This document shows, piece by piece, positions 2,060-38,448 of a stretch of DNA of 39,253 nt (the first letter of the stretch is position 1; each line of letters opens with the position of its first letter). The notes beneath the pieces are model-generated. The model made no database searches and had not been told where the DNA came from. It saw only the letters and a list, made by a program, of their open reading frames with translations. Location of the stretch: NCBI RefSeq assembly GCF_004010195.1, contig NC_057718.1:67192396-67231648 (forward strand), given 5' to 3'. A program made the translations under genes and the position numbers. Origin of the DNA: Chiloscyllium plagiosum. Lineage: Eukaryota.

Positions 2060-3125
2060 ACTGACCTCCTCTCCACTGGAGATCTACCCTCTATGGTTTG
2101 CAACCTTGTCATCCAATAAGTGCAAACAATCCACTTCTATCTCCAGTCCAAGATCCTCAAACATGACTGCCCTGATAGACCAATCATTTCAGCCTGCCCC
2201 TGTTTCTATCTCAACTCTATTTTATTAATCCTTGTCCAATCTCTACTTACAGTCTCTGAGACTTCTGGTGCTCTTTATCACTTTAATAGCTTCCACCCTT
2301 GGCCCTAACCCTATCCTTTTCCATGTGCATGTTACCCACCAGAATAATCTAAGAGCCCTCTATTTCTTCCTTGAATAGACATCCAACCAGTTTCTCTCCT
2401 CTTCCACTTGGCAGAACTTGTTCTCGCATTCAACAATTCCTCCTTCAACCATGTTCACTTCCTCCGAATATAAAGTGCTGCTTTGGTACCTACAGGAATG
2501 CTTGTCCTTTTTTGGAATATATGAAGCATTGTTCATTTCTGTCATGCTCAGGTCACCTCCTTCACCTCTTTTTCTGTAATTTTGATAATTGTACCAGTGC
2601 CATTTCCTGCATTCACTTGGAACCGGAACATTTAATCAACTTAGCTGTAAATTTCCACCCCATTCTTATCGTCACGTGGTACATTTTTGACACTATTTTC
2701 CCTTCCTCATTTTTCCATCTCCATTTTTGGGGATAAGCAATTAAACAATATTTGATGTAAGTCTACTGATCCCACAGCTACTTCTTCACATACACTTCTT
2801 CCTATAAGGTGTCCATTCCATCCTCCTAGTTTCTCCACCTCTGTCACCTTTGTTCTGATGATGTAACCTGTCATTCCTGTACTTTTAATATGTCTTCCTT
2901 TCCCTTAGATGGAGACTTAGATGTGTTTAACAGAGCTGTCAGCCACATTCATTAAAATTCTATATATATCCCTTCCCCTCTCTCCAGGAACAATGACAGA
3001 GCTTTCATGCCTCACCTTCCATCTCACCAGCCTCCATGTTCCACCATTTCTATTACTTCCAGCATGATATAGCACAAAGCATACCTTCTCACTTACCAAG
3101 GTCCCAAACACTCTTCCAGATGAAG
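2060..3125 (+). mobile_element. Decayed Penelope-like element, RT/thumb region
   Basis: Remnant motifs KHDCPDRPIISAC (PGRPIVS-like), LAELVLAFNNSSFN, a YKPTDSH-like ctactgatcccacagcta and an SIP..FL.L...CSDD segment; many frameshifts. Confidence 0.8.
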
Positions 3126-3342: not shown

Positions 3343-3441
3343 AACAAAAACAGAAATTGCTGGTGAAACTCAGTAGGTCTTGCCTATATCTGTGGGAAGA
3401 AAGTGATTTAATGTGTCGAGTCCAATGACCCTTCATCAGAA
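3343..3441 (-). mobile_element. PLE terminal fragment with degenerate hammerhead core
   Basis: Reverse complement reads ctgatga-a-gggtc-attg-gactc-gaca-catt, followed by the typical PLE terminal sequence. Confidence 0.7.
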
Positions 3442-3560: not shown

Positions 3561-4306
3561 TGTAGCGATTGTAGTGAGATCAATCAGTTGGACTACAGAG
3601 AATATGAGTTCCCTAATTGGGACTGTTAATATGGTCCAATCAGGGAGACCTGGCTAACATAAAAGGATGAATGGCAGAGTTTTTGAGATCCTGAATGACT
3701 CAGTGAGAGGCAGTGCTATTGTCTAAGTCGATAAAATGTGGAGCAGCACAGCAGGTCAGACAGCATTGGCGGAGCAGGAAAGTCAATGTTTCAGGTTGGG
3801 AGACCTTCATCAAGACTGGGGAGGGGCAAGGGAGCTCAGAAATAAATAAAGGGAGGTAGGCTGGGGCTGGAGGAAATGTAGGTGGGATATTGATATGTGG
3901 ATGCAGGAAAGGTAGATGGCATGGTGATAAGTGGATGTAGGTAGGGGATTATTGTGATTGGTCAGTGGGAAGAGTGGAACGGATAAGTGAGAAGGAAGAT
4001 GGACAGGTTATGTCAGTCAAGGAGGTGAGGAGGAGAAGGAGGGCTGGACATGGGATGAGGTTGGGGATGGGGAGATTTTGAAGTTGGTCAACTCCATGTT
4101 GTAGCCATTGAGCTGTAAGCTCCCAAGATGGAATATAAGATTTTGTTTGCATATGGCCTCATTTTAGTAGTGGAGGAGGCCCAGGGTGGACATGCCGCCA
4201 GGGAAGTGGGAGAGGGAGTTGAAATGGCTGGCAACTGTCTAAGGCTGTATGCTTAAGAATAAAAGATGATTGGTGATGGGATGTTGGCCTCTGAAGAATT
4301 GTTTCA
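3561..4306 (+). mobile_element. Gypsy-type solo LTR interrupted by a PLE insertion
   Basis: Starts TG (tgtagcgatt), ends CA (ttgtttca), AATAAA near 4258; flanks ccta/ccca form a 4-bp TSD with one mismatch; about 230 bp once the insert is removed. Confidence 0.75.
3728..4235 (-). mobile_element. PLE 3' end: GIY-YIG C-terminal region, pyrimidine-rich UTR and hammerhead terminus
   Basis: Minus strand encodes VASHFNSLSHFPGGMSTLGLLH..LGSLQLNGYNMELTNF; ttgatga-aggt-ctccca-acct-gaaa near 3787-3812; 8-bp TSD tgtctaag at 3720-3727 and 4236-4243. Confidence 0.85.
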
Positions 4307-9165: not shown

Positions 9166-9435
9166 AAATCTTATCAGTACCTGAACGATATAGACATTGG
9201 TGTGAAAATTGGGAGGATTGCATGAGAGTAACAGAGTGGAGCTTCCTGCATCAAGACTAAAATATTCAATTTTTCAACAAAGTTTTGGATGGTGAGGCAA
9301 GATTTTCACATGCATCTCCATTCTCATGATGATGTCATTTTGCCTAATTGATATACAATTTCCCATTCTCCACTCAATGCATTGAAACTAAATGGTGGCA
9401 AGTGTTGGCATGAAAGTCAAACAGTAATCTAGTAA

Positions 9436-9526
9436 GTTAAAAATCACACAACCACAGGTTATAGTCCAACAACATTATTTGGAAGCTCTAGCTTTCAGAG
9501 AGCTGCTCCTTCATCAGGTGGTTGTG
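9436..9526 (-). mobile_element. PLE terminal fragment (second family) with hammerhead core
   Basis: Reverse complement cac-ctgatga-a-ggag-cagct-ctct-gaaa-gcta: CUGAUGA and GAAA boxes, helix II, palindromic AGCU helix III. Confidence 0.78.
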
Positions 9527-9591: not shown

Positions 9592-9927
9592 GGAGAGGCA
9601 CAGTGGCATGGTGATTAGCATTGCTATCTCACAGCACCAGGAACCCAGGGATTCCAGCCTCAGGCAACTATCTGTGTGGAGTTTGCATGTTCTCCCTGTG
9701 TTTGCGTAGGTTTCTGCTAGGTGCTTCGGTTTCCTCCCACAGTCCAAAGATTTGCAAGTTAGGTGGATTGACCCATTGTGTTCAGGGACATGTAGGTTAG
9801 GTGCGTTAACCATGGGAAATATAGGGCTACAGGGAAAAGGTAGGGGATAGGTCCAGGTGGGATGATTTTCAGTTGGTATGGACTTATTGGGCCGAATGGC
9901 CTGTTTCCACACTGTGGGGATCCTAGA
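9592..9927 (+). mobile_element. HE1-type V-SINE, near full length, diverged
   Basis: tRNA-like head, V-domain gtgtggagtttgcatgttctccctgtgtttgcgtaggtttc, and CR1-derived tail gggccgaatggcctgtttccacactgt. Confidence 0.9.
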
Positions 9928-10578: not shown

Positions 10579-10763
10579 AGATTAGATTAGATTACTTTAC
10601 AGTGTGGAAACAGGCCCTTCGGCCCAACAAGTCCACACCGACCCGCCGAAGCGTAACCCACCCATACCCCTACATTTACCCCTTACCTAACACTATGGGC
10701 AATTTAGCATGGCCAATTCACCTGACCTGCACATCTTTGGACTGTGGTGCCACCGTGCCGCCC
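10579..10763 (-). mobile_element. HE1-type V-SINE, young, internally deleted
   Basis: (TAATC)n tail and near identity to 21531-21855, but the head ggtggca joins directly to ccacagtccaaag. Confidence 0.92.
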
Positions 10764-12149: not shown

Positions 12150-12830
12150 TTAATTCCTCATAAAACTCACCAAAACTGATACTTAGCTGATTTCTGACAA
12201 AATTCAGCCCTTAGTGTTGTTATTTAAGGAGAGATGTTCTTATATTGGAGGTGGTGCATAGATTCATGAGATGAAGCGAAAACCAAAAGAATTGCGGTTG
12301 CTGTAAATGAGAAACAAAAACAGAAGTTGCTAGAAAAGATAAGCAGGTCTGGCAGCATCTTTGAAGAGCAATCAGAGCTAATGTTTCAGGTCCTGTTCTG
12401 AGGTAGGGTCACTAGACCTGAAACGTTAACTCTGATTGCTCTTCACAGATGCTGCCAGACCTGCTGTTCTTGAGGAGAAGAGGAAAGAATAAGTAGATGA
12501 GGTCTCTAGTCATTAGAATTCAGATGAATTAGAAGTGATCTTATTCAAGAATATAAGATTCTGAGTGAGTTTGAGGGGCTGACAGACTAATGTTCTTTAT
12601 ATGGGTTTCTAGAATTTCAGAATAGACTGATCCCCAGTTAAAACAGGGACAAGGAAGAATTTGTCTCCTTCTGAAGGCTATTCATTTATTAACTTCCCTA
12701 TCTCAGTAAGCATCAGTGATAGACAACTGTTATTGGGGGAGAGGGGAGGCAGGCAGATCAGATCAGCCATGATTTTCTTGAATGACGAACTAAGCTCAAA
12801 GGAAAGGTAGACTTCTTCCAACTTTATTCT
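12150..12830 (+). mobile_element. Degenerate CR1 3' fragment interrupted by a PLE hairpin
   Basis: LEFR..RSDLIQEYKIL remnant and a CR1 3' UTR (gatcagatcagccatgat). Confidence 0.7.
12279..12466. mobile_element. Fold-back PLE-terminus cassette with hammerhead core
   Basis: 51-bp inverted arms 12342-12392 / 12415-12465 (3 mismatches); ctgaggta-gggtc-acta-gacct-gaaa-cgtt on the + strand. Confidence 0.85.
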
Positions 12831-13214
12831 CACGGTTGTTGTTGTGACATTTGCATCTGAATTCATTTTTTGTCAGTCAGATTTACCAGTGCAGCATTTT
12901 TGCTATCTTCAATGCCTTGAACTCACTTGCTGCATTTGCATTATTTATTATTTAATAGTCTTTTTTAATGTTTCTAAAAGTATTTGTATCCAAGCATATG
13001 ATAGGTGCTAATATTTCTAGCTCACTATGAGAATACTGTTACTGAAAGCAATTTTTTTCTGAATAACTGTTTTGTTTCATCTAATAGCTGTCTCTGGTAG
13101 GATTATAAATTATGCTATGATCACCAGGAAATAATTCTTATTTAGACAATTTTGAAGAAATGATAAAACTCAAAAGTTTTAGCAGCATATGGTGCTATCT
13201 AAGAATTCTTTTTT

Positions 13215-14112
13215 AAGTAGAACTTACTTACATTTAAGACAAATGAAATGTAAGGCATTAGTGATATCAGGTAGACAGGATAGTGAAGAAGGCATTTGGT
13301 ATGATTGCCTTTATTGGTCAGTGCATTGAGTATAAGAGTTAGGAGGAGAAAGTGAGGGCTGCAGATGCTGGAGATCAGAGCTGAAAATGTGTTGCTGGAA
13401 AAGCGCAGCAGGTCAGGCAGCATTCAAGGAACAGGAGAATCGACGTTTCGGGCATTCCTGAAGAAGGGCTTATGCCCGAACCGTCGATTCTCCTGTTCCT
13501 TGAATGCTGCCTGACCTGCTGCGCTTTTCCAGCAACACGTATAAGAGTTAGGAGGTCATGATGTGGTTATAGAGGACATTGGTTAGGTCACTTTTGGAAT
13601 AATGCATTCATTTCTGGTCTCCCGGCCGAAAGGAAAGATGTTGTGAAACTTGAAAGGATTCAGAAAAGATTTACAAGGCTGTTGCTGGGGTTAGAGGGTT
13701 TGAGCTATAGGGCGAGGCTGAATAGGCTGGGGCTATTTTCTCTGCAGCGTTGGAGTCTGAGGGGTGACCTTATAGAGATTTATAAAATCTTGAGGGGCAT
13801 AGATAGAGTGAATAGTCAAGGTCTTTTCCTCAGAGTAAGAAGGCATAGGTTTAAGGTGAGGTGGGAAAGATCTAAGGGGCAACTTTTTCACACAGAGTGT
13901 AGTGGGTATGGAAAGAGCTGCCAGAGGCAGTGTAGGAGGCTGATACAATTACAACATTTAAAAGGCATCTGAATGGTAAATGAATAGGAAGGGTTTAGAG
14001 GGGTATGGGCCAAATGCTGGCAAATGGGACTAGATTAGTTTAGGATATCTGGTTGGCATGGACGAGTTGGACTGAAGGGTCTATTTCCATGCTGTATATC
14101 TCTATGACTCTA
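13215..14112 (+). mobile_element. 5'-truncated CR1 (HER1-type) LINE with intact 3' end
   Basis: LERIQKRFTRLLLGLEGLSY..RGDLIEIYKILRGIDRV; 3' UTR ending atctctatgactcta. Confidence 0.92.
13347..13538. mobile_element. Young fold-back PLE-terminus cassette with hammerhead core and 17-bp TSD
   Basis: 67-bp inverted arms 13389-13455 / 13472-13538 (1 mismatch), 16-nt loop; TSD gtataagagttaggagg at 13330-13346 and 13539-13555. Confidence 0.93.
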
Positions 14113-14967: not shown

Positions 14968-15181
14968 GGGCGGCATGGTGGCTCAATGGTTAGCACTGCT
15001 GCCTCACAGCGCCGGATTTCCTCCCACAGTCCAAAGATGTGCAGGTTAGGTGAATTGGCCATGCTAAATTGCCCATAGTGTTAGGTGAAGGGGTAAATGT
15101 AGGGGAATGGGTCAGGGTGGGTTGCTCTTCGGAGGGTCGGTGTGGACTTGTTGGGTTGAAGGGCCTGTTTCCACACTGTAA
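14968..15181 (+). mobile_element. HE1-type V-SINE, internally deleted
   Basis: gggcggcatggtggctcaatggttagcactgctgcctcacagcgcc joined to ggatttcctcccacagtcc; standard tail. Confidence 0.92.
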
Positions 15182-15369
15182 ATGAAAAAGAAAATCCTAA
15201 AGCTAACCCTACGAACCATTGAGAGCCCTTAAAGAGGGGCCATAATCTTCCAGACACCAGTGGGAGAAAATTGTTTTGTTTCATTCTGTCTTTCAACACA
15301 CTTTTTAGGTAAACTCTAATGTGCATTGTTTTATTTGAACATTGCTAAACATAATCATTAATGAAGTTG

Positions 15370-16712: not shown

Positions 16713-17613
16713 NNNNNNNNNNNNNNNNNNNNNNNNNNNNNNNNNNNNNNNNNNNNNNNNNNNNNNNNNNNNNNNNNNNNNNNNNNNNNNNNNNNNNNNN
16801 NNNNNNNNNNNNNNNNNNNNNNNNNNNNNNNNNNNNNNNNNNNNNNNNNNNNNNNNNNNNNNNNNNNNNNNNNNNNNNNNNNNNNNNNNNNNNNNNNNNN
16901 NNNNNNNNNNNNNNNNNNNNNNNNNNNNNNNNNNNNNNNNNNNNNNNNNNNNNNNNNNNNNNNNNNNNNNNNNNNNNNNNNNNNNNNNNNNNNNNNNNNN
17001 NNNNNNNNNNNNNNNNNNNNNNNNNNNNNNNNNNNNNNNNNNNNNNNNNNNNNNNNNNNNNNNNNNNNNNNNNNNNNNNNNNNNNNNNNNNNNNNNNNNN
17101 NNNNNNNNNNNNNNNNNNNNNNNNNNNNNNNNNNNNNNNNNNNNNNNNNNNNNNNNNNNNNNNNNNNNNNNNNNNNNNNNNNNNNNNNNNNNNNNNNNNN
17201 NNNNNNNNNNNNNNNNNNNNNNNNNNNNNNNNNNNNNNNNNNNNNNNNNNNNNNNNNNNNNNNNNNNNNNNNNNNNNNNNNNNNNNNNNNNNNNNNNNNN
17301 NNNNNNNNNNNNNNNNNNNNNNNNNNNNNNNNNNNNNNNNNNNNNNNNNNNNNNNNNNNNNNNNNNNNNNNNNNNNNNNNNNNNNNNNNNNNNNNNNNNN
17401 NNNNNNNNNNNNNNNNNNNNNNNNNNNNNNNNNNNNNNNNNNNNNNNNNNNNNNNNNNNNNNNNNNNNNNNNNNNNNNNNNNNNNNNNNNNNNNNNNNNN
17501 NNNNNNNNNNNNNNNNNNNNNNNNNNNNNNNNNNNNNNNNNNNNNNNNNNNNNNNNNNNNNNNNNNNNNNNNNNNNNNNNNNNNNNNNNNNNNNNNNNNN
17601 NNNNNNNNNNNNN
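16713..17613. other. Assembly gap (901 N)
   Basis: Run of N. Confidence 1.
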
Positions 17614-21530: not shown

Positions 21531-21855
21531 AGATTAGATTAGATTACTTTAGATTACTTTACAGTGTGGAAACAGGCCCTTCGGCCCAACAAGTCCACAC
21601 CGACCGCCGAAGCGCAACCCACCCATACCCCTACATTTACCCCTTACCTAACACTACGGACAATTTAACATGGCCAATTCACCTGACCTGCACATCTTTG
21701 GACTGTGGGAGGAAACCGGAGCACCCGGAGGAAACCCACGCAGACACAGGGAGAATGTGCAAACTCCACACAGTCAGTCGCCGGAGGCGGGAATTGAACC
21801 CGGGTCTCTGGCGCTGCGAGGCAGCAGTGCTAACCACTGTGCCACCGTGCTGCCC
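21531..21855 (-). mobile_element. HE1-type V-SINE, full length, young
   Basis: Intact A box (tggcacagtgg) and B box (ggttcaattcc), V-domain, retained CpGs and (TAATC)n tail. Confidence 0.95.
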
Positions 21856-24095: not shown

Positions 24096-24111
24096 CTACA
24101 CATATTTTGCT

Positions 24112-24340
24112 AGGAGGAAGTGAGGACTGCAGCTGCTGGAGATCAGTGTTGAAGAGTGTGGTGCTGTAAAAGCACAGCCAGTCAGGCAGCATCCGAGGAG
24201 CAGGAGAATCGGCATTTTGGGCATAAGCGTTTCATCAGGAATGAAGCCTCATTCATGATGAAGGGCTTATGCCCAAAACATTGATTCTCCTACTCCTCAG
24301 ATGCTGTCTGACTAGCTGTGCTTTTCCAGCACCACACTTT
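24112..24340. mobile_element. Fold-back PLE-terminus cassette with a hammerhead core on each arm
   Basis: ~90-bp inverted arms 24155-24244 / 24249-24338 with a 4-nt loop; same family as 13347. Confidence 0.9.
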
Positions 24341-24419
24341 TCTACAGAAGTTTTACCTTGTGTAAAGAGAGATGTACCCAGATAGTTAACAACTTTCAGC
24401 CAAAAAAAAAGTTCCAGCT

Positions 24420-27400
24420 TTTACAGCATAGAAAAAGGTCTTTGAGCCCATCATGTCCACACCAGCCATATGAACATATGAACAAAGTAGGCCTCTCAGC
24501 CTTTTGAACCTGCTGCACTATTCAATAAGATCATGGCTGATCTGGTTTTAATTTCAACTCTACATTCCTGCATATCCCTCACAATGTATTATCCCCTTGG
24601 CAATCAAGAATCTACCTTTTCATTGCCTTTTCAGAAAGGGAATTCTAAAACATCACAATTCTGTTTTCGATGAGAACCCCTTAATTTTTAAACTACAACC
24701 TAGTTTTAGGTTCTCCCACACAAGGAAGCAACATTTCAACATTCTCCTGGTCAAGTCCCCTCAGGATCTTCTATGTTTATGACACTTCTAAACTTCAGAG
24801 AACACAGGTGTAGCCTGTCTAACCATTCCTCAGAAGGCAATTAACTCCTTCCAGGTTTTGGTTTGGTAAGCCTTTCCAATGCATTAACTGTAATACAGTG
24901 ACTATTACTGATCACAGTACTCCAGATGCAGTCTCACCAATGCCAAACCTCCCTACTCTTGAATCTCCTCACATTATTAGTTTTCCTTATTACTTGCTGC
25001 ACATGCATACTAACCTCCTATGATTCATCCACTAGGGCATCCATTTGTGGATACATGGGAACAGGTCTAGGTCATTCAGCCCTCAAACCTGTCCCATCAT
25101 TCAATGAGATCATGTTTGAACTACAACCTAGCACTGTATAGGAGAAAGAGAGGACTGCAGAGGCTGGACAGTCAGAGTTGAAAAGGGTGGCGCTGGAAAA
25201 GCACAGCAGGTCAGGCCCCATTGGAGGAGCCGGAAAGCTGAATTTTCAGACATAAACTCTTCATCAGGAATGACTTATGCCTGAACATTGACTCTCCCAT
25301 TCCTCAGATGCTGCCTGAACTGTTGTGCTTTTCCAGCACCACTCTTTTGGACACTAACACCTGCCTTTGTCCAATATGCTTTTATACCTTTTCTTAATAA
25401 ATATTTGTTGATATGATTTAAAACTAACTGATTCAGCATCCACTGCCATTTGTAGAAGAGAGTTTCAAGCATTTACCACACTTCGTGGATAGAAGTGTTT
25501 CCTAACATCTGTGCTGAGTGAGCTGGCCCTAATTCTCAGACTATGCCTCTAGTTCTAGAATCTCTAAACAATGTAAATAGTTAATCTTTATCTGCCCTAT
25601 CTTTTCTTGTTAATATATTTAATACTTCAATCAGATAGCCCTTAATGTTCTAAATTCTAGAGAAAACAGGCCTAATTTGTATAATCTCTTCTCATATCGT
25701 AATACCTGAAGTCCAGTTATCATTCTTGTAAACCTATGTTATACTCCCTGCAGGACCAATATATCCTTCTGAAGATATGGTACACAGATATACGGATATT
25801 ATCTCAGGTGGGATATAACCAAGGTTTTGTATTTCTGCAACAAAGCTTCTGCATTCTTGTACAGCAGTCCTCTAGATAGAAAGGCCATCATTTCATTAGC
25901 CTTCTTGATTATTTTCTGCACCTGTTAGTAACATTTCAAGATCAATGCACCTGAATCCTCAAGTCTCTTTGGACATCCAATGCATTTAACTTAATAACAT
26001 TTAGAAAGCATTTGGATCTGTCCTTTTTCAGTCCAAAATGGAAACCTAACATTTGCTTACATTGAACTCCATCTGCCAGAGTTTTGCCCATTCATTCAGT
26101 CTATCAATATCTTTTGTAATTTTATGCTACCATCTACGCTGTCTACAATATCACCTAACTTTGTGTTATGAACAAATTTAGATGTATGACTTTTTATGCC
26201 ATTATCAAAGTCATTAATAAATACTATGAATAATTAAGGCTCTAACATAGAACTCTCTGCATCTCAGAGATCTGTAACCTTTCACTATTTAGATAGCAGC
26301 CTTCATTTTTTTCTTTCTATCAAAACGGATAATTTCGCACTTATTCACATTTTCCAGACCTTTGTCCACAAACTTTACCTTTCTACATACCTTTGTAGGC
26401 TCCATATGTCTTCTTCACAGCTTAGTTTTCTAATTATCCTTGTGTAGCCAGCAAACATTGCGACTAAACTTCGATCCCTTCAACCAAATTACCTCTATAA
26501 TTTGCAAAGAATTGGGGTCCCTGTGGTACACCACTTGTAACATCTTGCCAGCTTGATAACGACACATTCACTCCCACTGTCTCTTTCCTGTTAGTAAGCC
26601 AGTTGTCTATCCATTCCAATATGTCATCCCTACACCATGACAGTTGTTATTTTCATAATAATCTTTGATATGGCACATTATCAAATACCTTCTGGAAATC
26701 TAAACACAATATATCCACTGGTTCCCCTTTATCTAAAGCATAAGTTACTTCTTAAAAGAACTCTAATAAATCAGGTAAATCTGATTTCCCTTTGACAAAA
26801 CCATACTGGCCTGACTATCTTGAACTTTTCTGAATGCCCTTTTACAGGAACATAAAGAACTCGGAGCAGGGCTACGCAATTAAGTCCCTTGAACCTGCAC
26901 CCCCCATTGATACAATTATGGTTGATTTCATCTTAGCCTCAACTCCACTTTGCTGCCCACTATCTATGATCCTTCAACCATTATCTGTCTATCTCGTAAT
27001 TAAATTTGCTCAATGTCCCAGCACTCTGAAGTAGTGAATTCCATAGATTCATGACCCTTTGAGAGGAGTAATTTCTCCTCATCTGTGTTTTAAATCTGCT
27101 ACCCTTTATCCTAAAACTAAGACCTCTTGTCCTAGGTGGCTGCATATGAGGATACATTCTTGTTATGTCTATTTTGTCAATCCTCTTTAGCATCATAGAC
27201 CTCAGCTAAATCTCTTCTCATTCTTCTAAACTCTAGAGACTATAGGCCTAAACTGCTCAATCTCCTTTCATAAGACAAATTCCTCATCTCTAGAATCAAC
27301 CAAGCAAACCTCCTCCAAACTGCCTCTAATTCAATTACATCCCTCCCCAGTTAAGGGAACCATATTGTAGGCAATACTCCAGGTGTGGTCTCATTAATGC

Positions 27401-28081: not shown

Positions 28082-29050
28082 AGTCAACACGGCTTTGAGA
28101 GGGGCAGGTCATGCCTCACAAACCTTATCAAGTTCTTTGAGGATGTGACTAGAAACGTTGATGAGGGTTGAGCTGTGGATGTGGTGTATATGGACGTCAG
28201 CAAGGCATTTGATAAGGTTCCCCATGGTAGGCTCATTCAAAACGTCAGGAGGAATGGGATACAGGGGAACTTAGCTGTCTGGATACAGAATTGGCTGGCC
28301 AACAGAAGACNNNNNNNNNNNNNNNNNNNNNNNNNNNNNNNNNNNNNNNNNNNNNNNNNNNNNNNNNNNNNNNNNNNNNNNNNNNNNNNNNNNNNNNNNN
28401 NNNNNNNNNNNNNNNNNNNNNNNNNNNNNNNNNNNNNNNNNNNNNNNNNNNNNNNNNNNNNNNNNNNNNNNNNNNGTTTAAGAGTCGTGAGATCTTGTTG
28501 CAGCTCTATAAAACTTTGGTTAGGCTGCATTTGGAATACTGCGTCCAGTTCTGGCCGCCCTATTATAGGAAAGATGTGGATGCTTTGAAGAGGGTTTAGA
28601 GGAGATTTACCAGGATGCAGCCTGGATTGGAGGGCTTATCTTGTGAAGAGAGGTTGACTGAGCTCGGACATTTTTCATTGGAGAAAAGGAGGAGGAGAGG
28701 GGACCTAATTGAGGTATACAAGATAATGAGAGGCATAGATAGAGTTGATAGCCAGAGACTATTTCCCAGGGCAGAAATGACTAACAACAGGGATCATAGT
28801 TTTAAGCTGCTTGGAGGAAAGTATAGAGGGGATGTCAGCGGCGGGTTCTTTACACAGAGAGTTGTGAGAGCATGGAATGCGTTGCCAGCAGCAGTTGTGG
28901 AAGCGAGGTCATTGGGGACATTTAAGAGACTGTTGGACATGCATATGGTCACAGAAATTTGAGGGTGCATACATGAGGATCAATGGTCGGCACAACATTG
29001 TGGGCTGAAGGGCCTGTTCCGTGCTGTACTGTTCTATATTCTATGTTCTA
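28082..29050 (+). mobile_element. Young 5'-truncated CR1 with (TTCTATG)n tail; contains an assembly gap
   Basis: VDVVYMDVSKAFDKVPHGRL..WIQNWL; LEYCVQFW; FFTQRVVRAWNALP; tail ctgttctatattctatgttcta. Confidence 0.95.
28311..28475. other. Assembly gap (165 N)
   Basis: Run of N, shorter than the CR1 segment expected between its flanks. Confidence 1.
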
Positions 29051-29282
29051 ATTCTTTCTTCTTTTTATATTCTGTTCAATCTTCCGACCCATCATCTGTC
29101 TTCGCAGCATTATGTCTTCTTTTGAGTTTGATATCATCTTTAACTTTCTTAGTTAACCACAGTACTATCTCTGTCCCTTAAAATTTTTCTTAGTTGTTGT
29201 ATGTGTCTATTTTGTGCCTGGTAGAATATCCCTTGCATCATTATCCAACACCAAGCATCCAGCTATTTTAATCTCCCATGCC

Positions 29283-31105: not shown

Positions 31106-31123
31106 ATCCCTGGATTTTTTTTT

Positions 31124-31220
31124 AGATTAATTAGATTCCCTACAGTGTGGAAACAGGCCATTTGGTCCAACAAGTCCTCCGCAGAGTAACCCACCCAAAC
31201 CCAATCCTCTATATTTACCC
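31124..31220 (-). mobile_element. HE1-type SINE 3' fragment
   Basis: agattaattagattccctacagtgtggaaacaggccatttggtccaacaagtcc. Confidence 0.85.
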
Positions 31221-33370: not shown

Positions 33371-33375
33371 ATTTT

Positions 33376-33782
33376 AGAACATAGAACATAGAACAGTACA
33401 GCACAGAACAGGCTCTTCAGCCCACGATGTTGTGCCGACCATTGATCCTCATGTATGTACCCTCAAATTTCTGTGACCATATGCATGTCCAGCAGTCTCT
33501 TAAATGTCCCCAATGACCTTGCATTCACAACTGCTGCTGGCAACGCATTCCATGCTCTCACAACTCTCTGTGTAAAGAACCCACCTCTGACATTCCCTCT
33601 ATACTTTCCTCCAACCAGCTTAAAACTATGACCCCTCATGTTAGTCATTTCTGCCCTGGGAAATAGTCTCTGGCTATCGACTCTATCTATGCCTCTCATT
33701 ATCTTGTATACCTCAATTAGGTCCCCTCTCCTCCTCCTTTTCTCCAATGAAAAATGTCCGAGCTCAGTCAACCTCTCTTCAT
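33376..33782 (-). mobile_element. Young 5'-truncated CR1 3' end with (TTCTATG)n tail
   Basis: Near-identical reverse complement of ~28645-29050. Confidence 0.95.
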
Positions 33783-36352: not shown

Positions 36353-36455
36353 CATCTGAAGAAGGGTTATTGGACCTGAAATGTTCACTCTATTTTCTCT
36401 CTACAAATACTACCAGACCTACTGAAGTTCTCCAGGAACTTCTGTTTTTGTTTCA
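36353..36455 (+). mobile_element. PLE terminal fragment with hammerhead core
   Basis: ctgaaga-a-gggtt-attg-gacct-gaaa-tgtt followed by the terminus seen at 12279 and 3343. Confidence 0.75.
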
Positions 36456-37075: not shown

Positions 37076-38448
37076 AAGAACAGAAAAGATGGTAAAAGAG
37101 AGGGAGGTGTGGCATTTTTAGTCAAGGGCAGCATTACGATGGCAGAAAGGACATTTGAGGACTCATATACTGAGCTAGTATGGGCTGAGGTTAGAAACAG
37201 AAAAGGAGAGGTCATCCTATTGGGAGTTTTCTATAGGCTTCCAAATAGTTCCAGAGATGTAGAGGAAAGGATAGCAAAGATAATTCTGGGTAGTTGTGAG
37301 AGTAACAGGGTAGTTGTTATGGGAGGCTTTAACTTTCTAAATATTAACTGGAAATACGACAGTTCGAGTGCTGTAGATGGGCCGGTTTTTGTCCGATGTG
37401 TGCAGGGTGGTTTCCTAATATAGTATGTCAACAAGCCAGCAAGGGGCAAGGCCACATTAGATTTGGTACTGGGTAATGAACCTGGTCAGGTATTACATTT
37501 GGAGGTAGATGAGCACTTTGGTGATAATGACCATAATTTGGTTATGCTTACTTTAGTGATGGAAAGGGATAGGTATATACCGCAGGCAAGAGTTATTGCC
37601 AGGGGAAAGGCAATTGTGATGTGATTAGGCAAGATTTAGGATGCATAGGATGGGGAAGGAAACTGCAGAAAATGGACACAATTGAAATATGGAGCTTTTT
37701 CAAGGAACAGCTACTGCGTGTCCTTCATAAGTATGTACCTGTCAGGCAGGGAGGAAGTTGTCGAGTGAGGGAGCCGTGGTTTACTGAAGAGGTTGAATTG
37801 CTTGTAAAGAGGCTGATAGGGTTGTTAAGAAGACAAACGGTATGTTAGCTTTTATTGATAGAGGGATTGAGTTTCGGAGCCACGAGGTCATGCCACAGCT
37901 GTACAAAATTATGGTGCTGCCACACTTGGAATATAGCGTACAGTTCTGGTCACTGCATTATAGGAAGGATGTCGAAGCTTTGGAAAGGGTTCAGAAGAGA
38001 TTTACTTGGATGTTGCCTGGTTTCAAGGAAAGGTCTTATGAGGAAAGGCTAAGTGACTTTAGACTGTTTTCATTAGAGAGAAGAATGTTGAGAGCTGATT
38101 TAATTGAGACATATAAGAAAATCAGAGGGTTAGAAAGGGTGGACAGGGAGAGCCTTTTTCCTCAGGATGATGGTTAGCACGAATGGACATAGCTTTAAAT
38201 TGAGGGGTGATAGATATAGGACAGATGTCAGAGGTAGTTTCTTTATTCAGAAAGTAGTAGGAGTGTGGAACACACAGCCTGCAGCAGTAGTAGACTTGAC
38301 AACTTTACGGGCATTTAAATGGTCATTGGATAAACATGGATGAAAATGGAATAGTGTAGGATATATAGGCTTCAGATTAGTTCCACAGGTTGGCGCAACA
38401 TCGAGGGCTGAAGGGCCTGTACTGTGCTGTAATGCTCTATGTTCTATG
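37076..38448 (+). mobile_element. CR1 with endonuclease/tether joined to the C-terminus (RT core deleted)
   Basis: ELVWAEVRNRKG..GVFYRLPNS..GGFN; LDLVLGNEPGQV..DNDHN; jumps at ~37812 to MLAFIDRGIEFRS; tail ctctatgttctatg. Confidence 0.92.

Follow-up and report, generated by a model that had tools for sequence, protein, structure and literature searches.

Our results suggest that the hairpin lying inside a LINE fragment of Chiloscyllium plagiosum consists of two short 3' termini from a Penelope-like element (PLE), joined head to head and assembled at the moment of insertion by two passes. We put the probability of this reading at about 0.6, a joint figure that covers both the PLE identity of the insert and its two-pass assembly at insertion. 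All coordinates refer to the window, that is, the whole stretch of 39,253 nucleotides that was analysed. As we read it, the locus is composed as follows.

13250-14110, plus strand: the host, an older degenerate LINE fragment interrupted by the insert (limits approximate), whose paralogues align across the insertion point.
13330-13346, plus strand: left copy of the target-site duplication, an exact repeat that is single in the LINE paralogues; its letters 13344-13346 are also the terminal letters of the element.
13344-13388, minus strand: one-sided tail of 42-45 nt at the very 3' end of the PLE terminal sequence, carried by the long arm alone and outside the inverted repeat.
13389-13455, minus strand: long (left) arm, an inverted PLE pseudo-LTR (pLTR) end that stops inside helix II and has GAAACGUC without the CUGA box.
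13453-13455, no strand: head-to-head junction, where the long arm ends and the short arm starts on a shared 3-nt microhomology, CAT, as seen in the alignment to the hairpin at 24112-24346.
13453-13538, plus strand: short (right) arm, a forward PLE pLTR that starts 5 nt ahead of the hammerhead core and stops 42-45 nt before the end of the tail.
13456-13487, plus strand: minimal type I hammerhead motif with C instead of A at position 15.1 (13481), predicted inactive and sequestered.
13539-13555, plus strand: right copy of the target-site duplication, an exact repeat; the junction is bridged by a contig of single-copy depth with 0 differences.

The direct repeat formed by 13330-13346 and 13539-13555 is identical at 17 of 17 positions, and about 4e-5 such 17-mer pairs are expected by chance per 700 bp. 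The insert itself folds at -146.6 kcal/mol (z = -20), a stability that none of 200 shuffles reached, and a chance origin of hairpin and duplication is therefore excluded. Between the repeats lies a span of 192 bp (13347-13538), in which the inverted arms 13389-13455 and 13472-13538, 67 nt each and identical at 66 of 67 positions, enclose a loop of 16 nt; the sole mismatch opposes T at 13446 to C at 13481. The size of the insert, the length of its arms and their single mismatch had been given correctly in the original prediction, as had the lack of coding sequence (the focal copy holds no ORF), and the arrival of the whole in a single insertion event is likewise supported. The target-site duplication, which had been described as a perfect one of 17 bp, needs a qualification, since its outer border is shared with the element. 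When the contigs of three DNA runs were aligned onto 13000-13900 at a likeness of 88%, loose ends appeared ahead of 13344 in 874, 861 and 872 contigs, these ends being mutually unrelated (agreement 0.33-0.34), and ahead of 13345 in 345-464 contigs. The family end is therefore placed at 13344. The final 3 nt of the left repeat represent a microhomology between target and element, so that the repeat of 17 letters stands and the duplication proper measures 14-17 bp, with an insert of 192-195 bp.

The host sequence was recognised through its paralogues in the window (37800-38030 and 1270-1410), which align on both sides of the insertion point, skip the insert and carry the duplicated stretch only once. 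The read depth of this host repeat begins near 13248-13278, and a related LINE ORF in the window matches RVT_1 (Pfam); the translated host piece was not recognised when searched directly in Pfam. The earlier description of the host as CR1 therefore holds as far as an older LINE fragment is concerned, which would be of the CR1 type. Other repeats of the window include two LINE 3' fragments in opposite orientation (28644-29051 and 33374-33781), 96% identical over 408 nt, 4.3 kb apart and adjoining an assembly gap, which could be either young copies or an effect of assembly or inversion. A SINE-like family is present at 10579-10747, 15009-15182, 21541-21722, 9598-9915 and 31122-31220, with 74-96% identity among copies, and the assembly gaps (16713-17613 and 28311-28475) bring the window to 1066 N in all.

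The hairpin is lopsided. Read in the sense of the hammerhead, the insert combines, head to head, two stretches of one sequence that overlap, each of which carries sequence that the other lacks: the 42 nt of 13347-13388, which form the tail, are confined to the long arm and excluded from the inverted repeat, and a head of 16 nt belongs to the short arm only. Neither arm can thus be a plain copy of the other. This bears on the idea of a cut-and-paste element, either a MITE or a fold-back DNA transposon, with borrowed PLE sequence. The insert is indeed short, non-coding, flanked by a duplication and provided with a strong inverted repeat, but this repeat is not terminal, as the 42-45-nt tail stands outside it on one side only, and the entire insert is PLE terminal sequence. 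DDE transposons generate short target duplications of fixed length, and the duplication found here is 14-17 bp. Neither inverted repeats terminal at both ends nor many copies of uniform structure were found; the one-sided tail largely refutes the MITE reading, which we regard as very improbable.

The PLE identity of the insert is best approached from another copy in the window.

3739-4238, minus strand: copy E, a related 5'-truncated PLE copy with a broken GIY-YIG C-terminus (4238-4053), a pyrimidine-rich spacer, a degenerate hammerhead core at 3813 and the terminal sequence.

The terminal sequence of copy E aligns with the focal arms over 80 nt, with about 77% identity over 57 nt, and its broken GIY-YIG stretch of 62 residues lies about 240 nt upstream of the degenerate hammerhead core. 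Searched with X at the stop, this stretch retrieved 17 relatives at E values up to 0.001, and a weak Pfam GIY-YIG was seen in two of the 13 that were scanned. One of the relatives with weak GIY-YIG led to five longer proteins, all of which show a weak GIY-YIG below the curated cut-off; four of them (P0139-P0142) combine it with RVT_1, which is above the cut-off in two. The carpet shark proteins P0138 (Stegostoma tigrinum) and P0139 (Chiloscyllium punctatum) match the remnant of copy E by tblastn at E values of 3.5e-13 and 1.5e-5, respectively, and the zebra-shark model P0138 continues past the endonuclease into a stretch where 8 of 15 residues match the translated focal motif. Searched directly, the 62-residue remnant was not recognised by Pfam, and a word-index protein search with it found nothing. 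In the canonical PLE layout, as described for these elements, the RT is followed by a C-terminal GIY-YIG and then by a terminal repeat that bears the hammerhead (PMC8557442, PMC4209133). From this sequence evidence, namely the GIY-YIG C-terminus that precedes this terminal sequence in copy E and the RT/GIY-YIG relatives in sharks, the focal insert is almost certainly PLE sequence, in agreement with the origin originally proposed for it. The placement of the terminal sequence downstream of an RT and GIY-YIG ORF is observed through copy E, which represents a related subfamily and not the parent. The marks of a truncated insertion of an EN+ PLE are all found at the locus, namely an inverted 5'-truncated pLTR placed head to head, a one-sided tail and a target-site duplication; the tail, for which about 30-40 bp is the usual measure, reaches 42-45 nt on the long arm and is similar in two further hairpins of the family (B and C, below).

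Several other PLE traces were observed in and around this material. A decayed PLE reverse-transcriptase remnant at 2063-3033 (plus strand) matches P0138-P0142 by tblastn (best E 2.6e-14) and faces both a minus-strand motif at 3439 and copy E; the three could stem from a single PLE insertion, old and complex, or from several that are nested. Protein P0011, the gene model of a skate neuromedin-U receptor 1, ends with about 60 residues of PLE endonuclease sequence, which is likely a gene-model chimera, exonisation being the alternative. The tail ends at 13344-13360, 24109-24125 and 25137-25153 (all minus strand) show a pyrimidine run followed by TAG in hairpin B and are one letter off in the focal copy and in hairpin C, an arrangement that resembles a 3' splice site; introns close to the pLTR are known to be retained by PLEs.

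The hammerhead letters of the original prediction (CUGAAGA-A-GGGC/UUAU/GCCC-GAA(C)-CGUC) were located at 13458-13485, and the reading of a minimal type I motif is supported. C3-A9 correspond to CTGAAGA at 13458-13464, followed by a bulged A (13465), helix II (GGGC/TTAT/GCCC, 13466-13477), GAA (13478-13480) and C17 (13485); positions 15.1-16.1 read CCGT, and ACGT in the left arm, where the A is kept. The CUGANGA box, the bulge before helix II, G10.1-C11.1 and a helix II of at least 4 bp are all present. The arm mismatch does fall in the GAAA box, as had been stated, since the C at 13481 occupies position 15.1. A15.1 is invariant in hammerheads. At this position A accounts for about 98% of the family contig depth in all three DNA runs and for 485 of the 605 RNA-run reads, which makes the C most likely private to the focal copy; an intact GAAA (G12-A15.1) and a palindromic 15.1-16.1 characterise the family motif and are absent from the focal one. 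Helix I has only 2 contiguous bp, with a probability below 0.1 even in the isolated motif, where minimal hammerheads are expected to have 4-5 bp; nevertheless, the hammerhead motifs of the Drosophila virilis PLE are described with a helix I of 2 bp as well (PMC4209133).

The description of the hairpin as ribozyme-bearing thus holds for the presence of the motif and has to be weakened for its function. In the predicted fold, the pair probability of helix II is 0.98-1.0 in the isolated short arm vs 3e-6 in the whole insert, where a hammerhead fold would cost 27.4 kcal/mol relative to the stem. On the minus strand the left arm keeps GAAACGUC, as noticed originally, but it has no CUGA box and no 5' strand of helix II, so that no complete motif exists on either strand. 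From these folding values and the missing CUGA box, the insert is predicted not to cleave, even leaving the mutation at 15.1 aside. Rfam returned no hammerhead match at the insert at E values up to 10, and no hammerhead at gathering score in the whole window; its microRNA matches, mir-1253 and mir-90, were rejected, as they lie far below the gathering score and reflect merely the long stem. A strict hammerhead descriptor found two motifs in the window vs one in 30 shuffles, and misses the focal motif because of its mutation.

The ends of the insert (13344/13347 and 13538) do not coincide with the cleavage position (13485/13486), which is crossed by both arms; the template RNA was therefore most likely uncleaved. 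The features of a non-LTR retrozyme, tandem units with at least two complete hammerheads on the same strand and boundaries at the cleavage site, are thus lacking, and the insert is not a retrozyme.

The focal copy is very young, as its arms are identical at 66 of 67 and its duplication at 17 of 17 positions. Both arms also share a minority pair, T at 13424 and A at 13503, where the other letter accounts for about 89-95% of the family contig depth, so both derive from one template or one master. The contig that bridges the right junction comes from organism A, in a run (X1) that may lie near the source and is non-independent. Organism B shows 4 differences over the 298 letters of the unique flank. 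One of its contigs (run X5) covers 13539-13655 with 1 difference and then continues leftward for 8 letters unlike the insert, its orientation being deduced from other rows, as an empty site would produce; no such piece is among those listed for a second run of organism B. An empty site at the orthologous locus of organism B is therefore probable. As it has no ORF, and as its only hammerhead motif is mutated and predicted to be trapped in a stem, the focal copy was likely dead on arrival.

Three further hairpins of the window allow this anatomy to be compared.

24112-24346, no strand: hairpin B, an older sister of the same family, with a full palindromic centre and 98-nt arms (86%).
25140-25348, no strand: hairpin C, an older sister of the same family, with an antisense hammerhead start at its centre.
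12336-12471: hairpin D, from a second family of PLE termini, with 57-nt arms (91%), a near-intact hammerhead core at 12398 and the tail on the left.

Counting the focal copy as A, four family relatives (A, B, C and E) lie within the 39-kb window. Single-arm relatives of hairpin D occur at 36356 (plus strand) and 3439 (minus strand), and a third family with a hammerhead core is represented by a single arm at 9430-9525 (minus strand) with an intact core at 9517. The searches for a target-site duplication around B, C and D gave nothing better than 7-8 nt with a mismatch. The tail end is common to copies A, B and C, whose short arms all terminate inside a range of about 8 nt. In contrast to these fixed outer ends, the centres differ in all four hairpins of the window: the start of the motif is in sense in A and D and in antisense in C, and B is a full palindrome.

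Related contigs extend this diversity, with at least 15 further distinct hairpin-type joints (long arm running into short arm) among the joints listed. These counts come from contigs and not from assembled copies, and as the main table lists 15 of 843 joints (11 hairpin-type and 4 LINE), many of the 843 belonging to the LINE, its rows are examples rather than frequencies; two LINE-to-element rows of a second table were left out. Across the 15 listed joints the long arm ends anywhere from 13367 to 13455, several joints having extra letters between the two sides, and the sequence resumes at 13453-13464 in 11 of the 15, which is partly an effect of the reference.

In the sequence of events that we infer from this anatomy, an RT-endonuclease supplied by an autonomous PLE copy would nick the target strands 14-17 nt apart. 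The left nick would prime at the tail end of an uncleaved element RNA, aided by the 3-nt microhomology, and the right nick would prime 42-45 nt further in; both cDNAs would stop at or near the hammerhead region, anneal through CAT/ATG, and then be trimmed and filled in. Two passes are indicated by the tail found on the long arm only and the 16-nt head found on the short arm only, and a common template by the minority pair carried by both arms. The literature offers a basis for such two-ended priming. In vitro, the tail of an anole PLE is defined by two adjacent RT start sites, which are those of a Poseidon-clade element of a lizard, and the purified PLE protein, a predicted dimer, is described as cutting and extending both target strands and as using unprocessed RNA, hammerhead cleavage not being needed (PMC11167929). 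Two-ended priming is the simplest account of anatomy and literature taken together. It retains part of an alternative of the original prediction, a stereotyped fold-back product of PLE insertion: a product of PLE insertion is favoured, and a simple single fold-back does not explain arms that differ in content.

Besides the failure to find a duplication around the older hairpins B, C and D, and the GIY-YIG scores below the curated cut-off, two observations weigh against this reading. First, the focal centre aligns to the centre of hairpin B minus 28 nt, the gap falling between two CATs, and this could also be explained by a later deletion. A full palindrome like that of B, itself a near-perfect one, would have formed by fold-back of the cDNA at a palindrome 5' of the hammerhead, or by self-priming of the kind proposed for rotifer PLEs, and lost 28 nt between the CATs while being resolved or afterwards; palindromes at PLE junctions have been read as self-priming on an antisense template, and microhomology-mediated deletions in PLE copies are described (PMC3846280). 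The near identity of arms and duplication would have left little time for a later deletion, and the listed joints often lose far more of the long arm (to 13367) with the short arm intact. Such losses of the long arm next to a whole short arm, together with the extra letters of several joints, point rather to variable cDNA length and end joining. This course of events, the chief rival of two-ended priming, is in our view unlikely, yet deserves some weight.

Second, the focal junction recurs. Among the 24 contig pieces listed, one contig of run X1 bridges it at another locus with 11 differences in 95 nt and at single-copy depth, and a second, of run X5, nearly bridges it, with 11 differences and 29 letters on the left. 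Together with the abundance of the family (about 94,000-102,000 contigs per DNA run align to the stretch, the LINE part included), at least one and perhaps two other loci with the focal junction, among the contigs listed, could suggest a non-autonomous family copied by PLE proteins as a pre-formed 192-nt unit, in the manner of a retrozyme, and non-autonomous PLE derivatives are known to exist (PMC8557442; bioRxiv 10.64898/2026.07.22.740005). The summed arm depth is about 1e5 times that of the unique flank, a figure that is not a copy number and reads merely as very abundant. Nevertheless, recurrence of a junction is expected from a 3-nt microhomology in a very large family, shared descent being the alternative, and the junction-sharing copies differ at 11 positions where the focal arms differ at one. 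The varying centres also speak against a pre-formed unit, as do the reads of the RNA run: at an arm depth of about 600, 166 of them depart from the reference past 13455 and 248 join it ahead of 13453. On the unique flank this raw run (poly(A) single-cell, about 2% read, and blind to small or circular RNA) has zero depth, and its read ends do not pile up, which speaks neither for nor against small or circular RNA. A search over sequencing runs listed no RNA data set with the sequence. Moreover, a stem of 67 bp (-146.6 kcal/mol) would presumably be a poor template for RT, the tandem arrangement is absent and the ends are off the cleavage site. A pre-formed unit is therefore improbable.

Rebuilding of the hairpin at each insertion is favoured over a pre-formed hairpin family, because many junctions are combined with one common outer end in three DNA runs, the ends of A, B and C being fixed and the centres variable in four of four hairpins and in the listed joints. 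An independently amplifying retrozyme-like or MITE-like unit, the other alternative of the original prediction, is disfavoured by the different centres, the lack of terminal inverted repeats and of tandem units, and the position of the ends; unique junctions in every copy, which had been named as its refutation, are not fully borne out, since one contig shares the focal junction and a second nearly does. A scan of viral contigs for the centre pattern gave 0 matches, and phage records gave no match. The 118 metagenome loci with the centre pattern were rejected as unrelated, the best match to the insert being 37 nt at E 0.013 (BLAST). Most of the 80 listed are labelled gut metagenome, with recurring spans of 34 and 48 nt, some on both strands; they are a bacterial palindromic repeat unrelated to the insert.

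In all four hairpins of the window, the start of one arm lies 5-10 nt ahead of the hammerhead core. A tentative and rather doubtful proposal is that the hammerhead region serves as a fixed stop-and-join point for reverse transcription and not as scissors, either because the folded or protein-bound motif halts the enzyme or because an RNA of about 135 nt starting at the motif is the template. If the short template of about 135 nt is true, the stubs would be footprints of a huge non-autonomous single-arm family; on either version, the great number of hairpins in sharks would document, as it happens in nature, the second half of PLE integration, which is still unsolved.

The single locus matters little in itself, since it is likely an inactive insertion within an inactive LINE. 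What makes it useful is that it is a clean, very young specimen and gives the exact geometry of one PLE insertion, through its perfect duplication, near-identical arms, outer-end microhomology and the probable empty site in organism B. The origin of inverted PLE copies and of their one-sided tails is described as still undefined (PMC8557442), and the role of the hammerhead as open (PMC4209133, PMC11167929). The stubs of shark genomes bear on two-ended priming and on whether the hammerhead region fixes the stop of copying, and repeat annotation may mistake them for MITEs or microRNA hairpins. A search of literature that includes few subscription journals and few Repbase or Dfam entries listed no paper devoted to such stubs of shark PLEs.

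Compared with known systems, the motif resembles the minimal PLE hammerheads, whose described marks are CUGANGA, an unpaired base before helix II, G10.1-C11.1, palindromic 15.1-16.1 and no helix III (PMC4209133). It shares the first three of these, a palindromic 15.2-16.2, the absence of helix III, and the very high copy number with mainly solo motifs; opposite-strand pairs 100-700 bp apart are noted for them as well. It differs in its helix II of 4 bp, its helix I of just 2 bp, the mutated 15.1 and its burial in a 67-bp stem, and sharks are not among the examples that the available text gives for these hammerheads. The non-LTR retrozymes are described as head-to-tail tandems with at least two complete hammerheads on the same strand and units running from cleavage site to cleavage site (PMC7761336; bioRxiv 10.64898/2026.07.22.740005). 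The insert is like them in being non-coding and PLE-related, in having a type I hammerhead motif and in that it would need PLE proteins in trans, and unlike them in being a head-to-head pair with one broken motif.

The element PAc (Poseidon from Anolis carolinensis; Frangieh et al., 2024, PMC11167929) fits the focal anatomy by its dual start sites, its extension on both strands and its uncleaved template. It is, however, another element in another host, the available text of that report describes no head-to-head products, and the joining step is one that we infer. The closest likeness is to the canonical EN+ PLE units. The typical PLE insert has been described as pLTRs next to an inverted one, with a target-site duplication and with a tail that one of the pLTRs carries (Arkhipova et al., 2013, PMC3846280), a pattern given again, its origin being called undefined, by Craig et al. 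(2021, PMC8557442). The head-to-head inverted pLTR, the one-ended tail, the short overlap or palindrome at the junction, the target-site duplication and the insertion into another retroelement are common to both. In contrast, the partners of the focal insert are cut to 86-112 nt and have no ORF, and its tail of 42-45 nt and duplication of 14-17 bp compare with a canonical PLE tail of 30-40 bp and a rotifer duplication of 8-10 bp. The insert is thus a real, young and clean but ordinary example of an already described PLE pattern.
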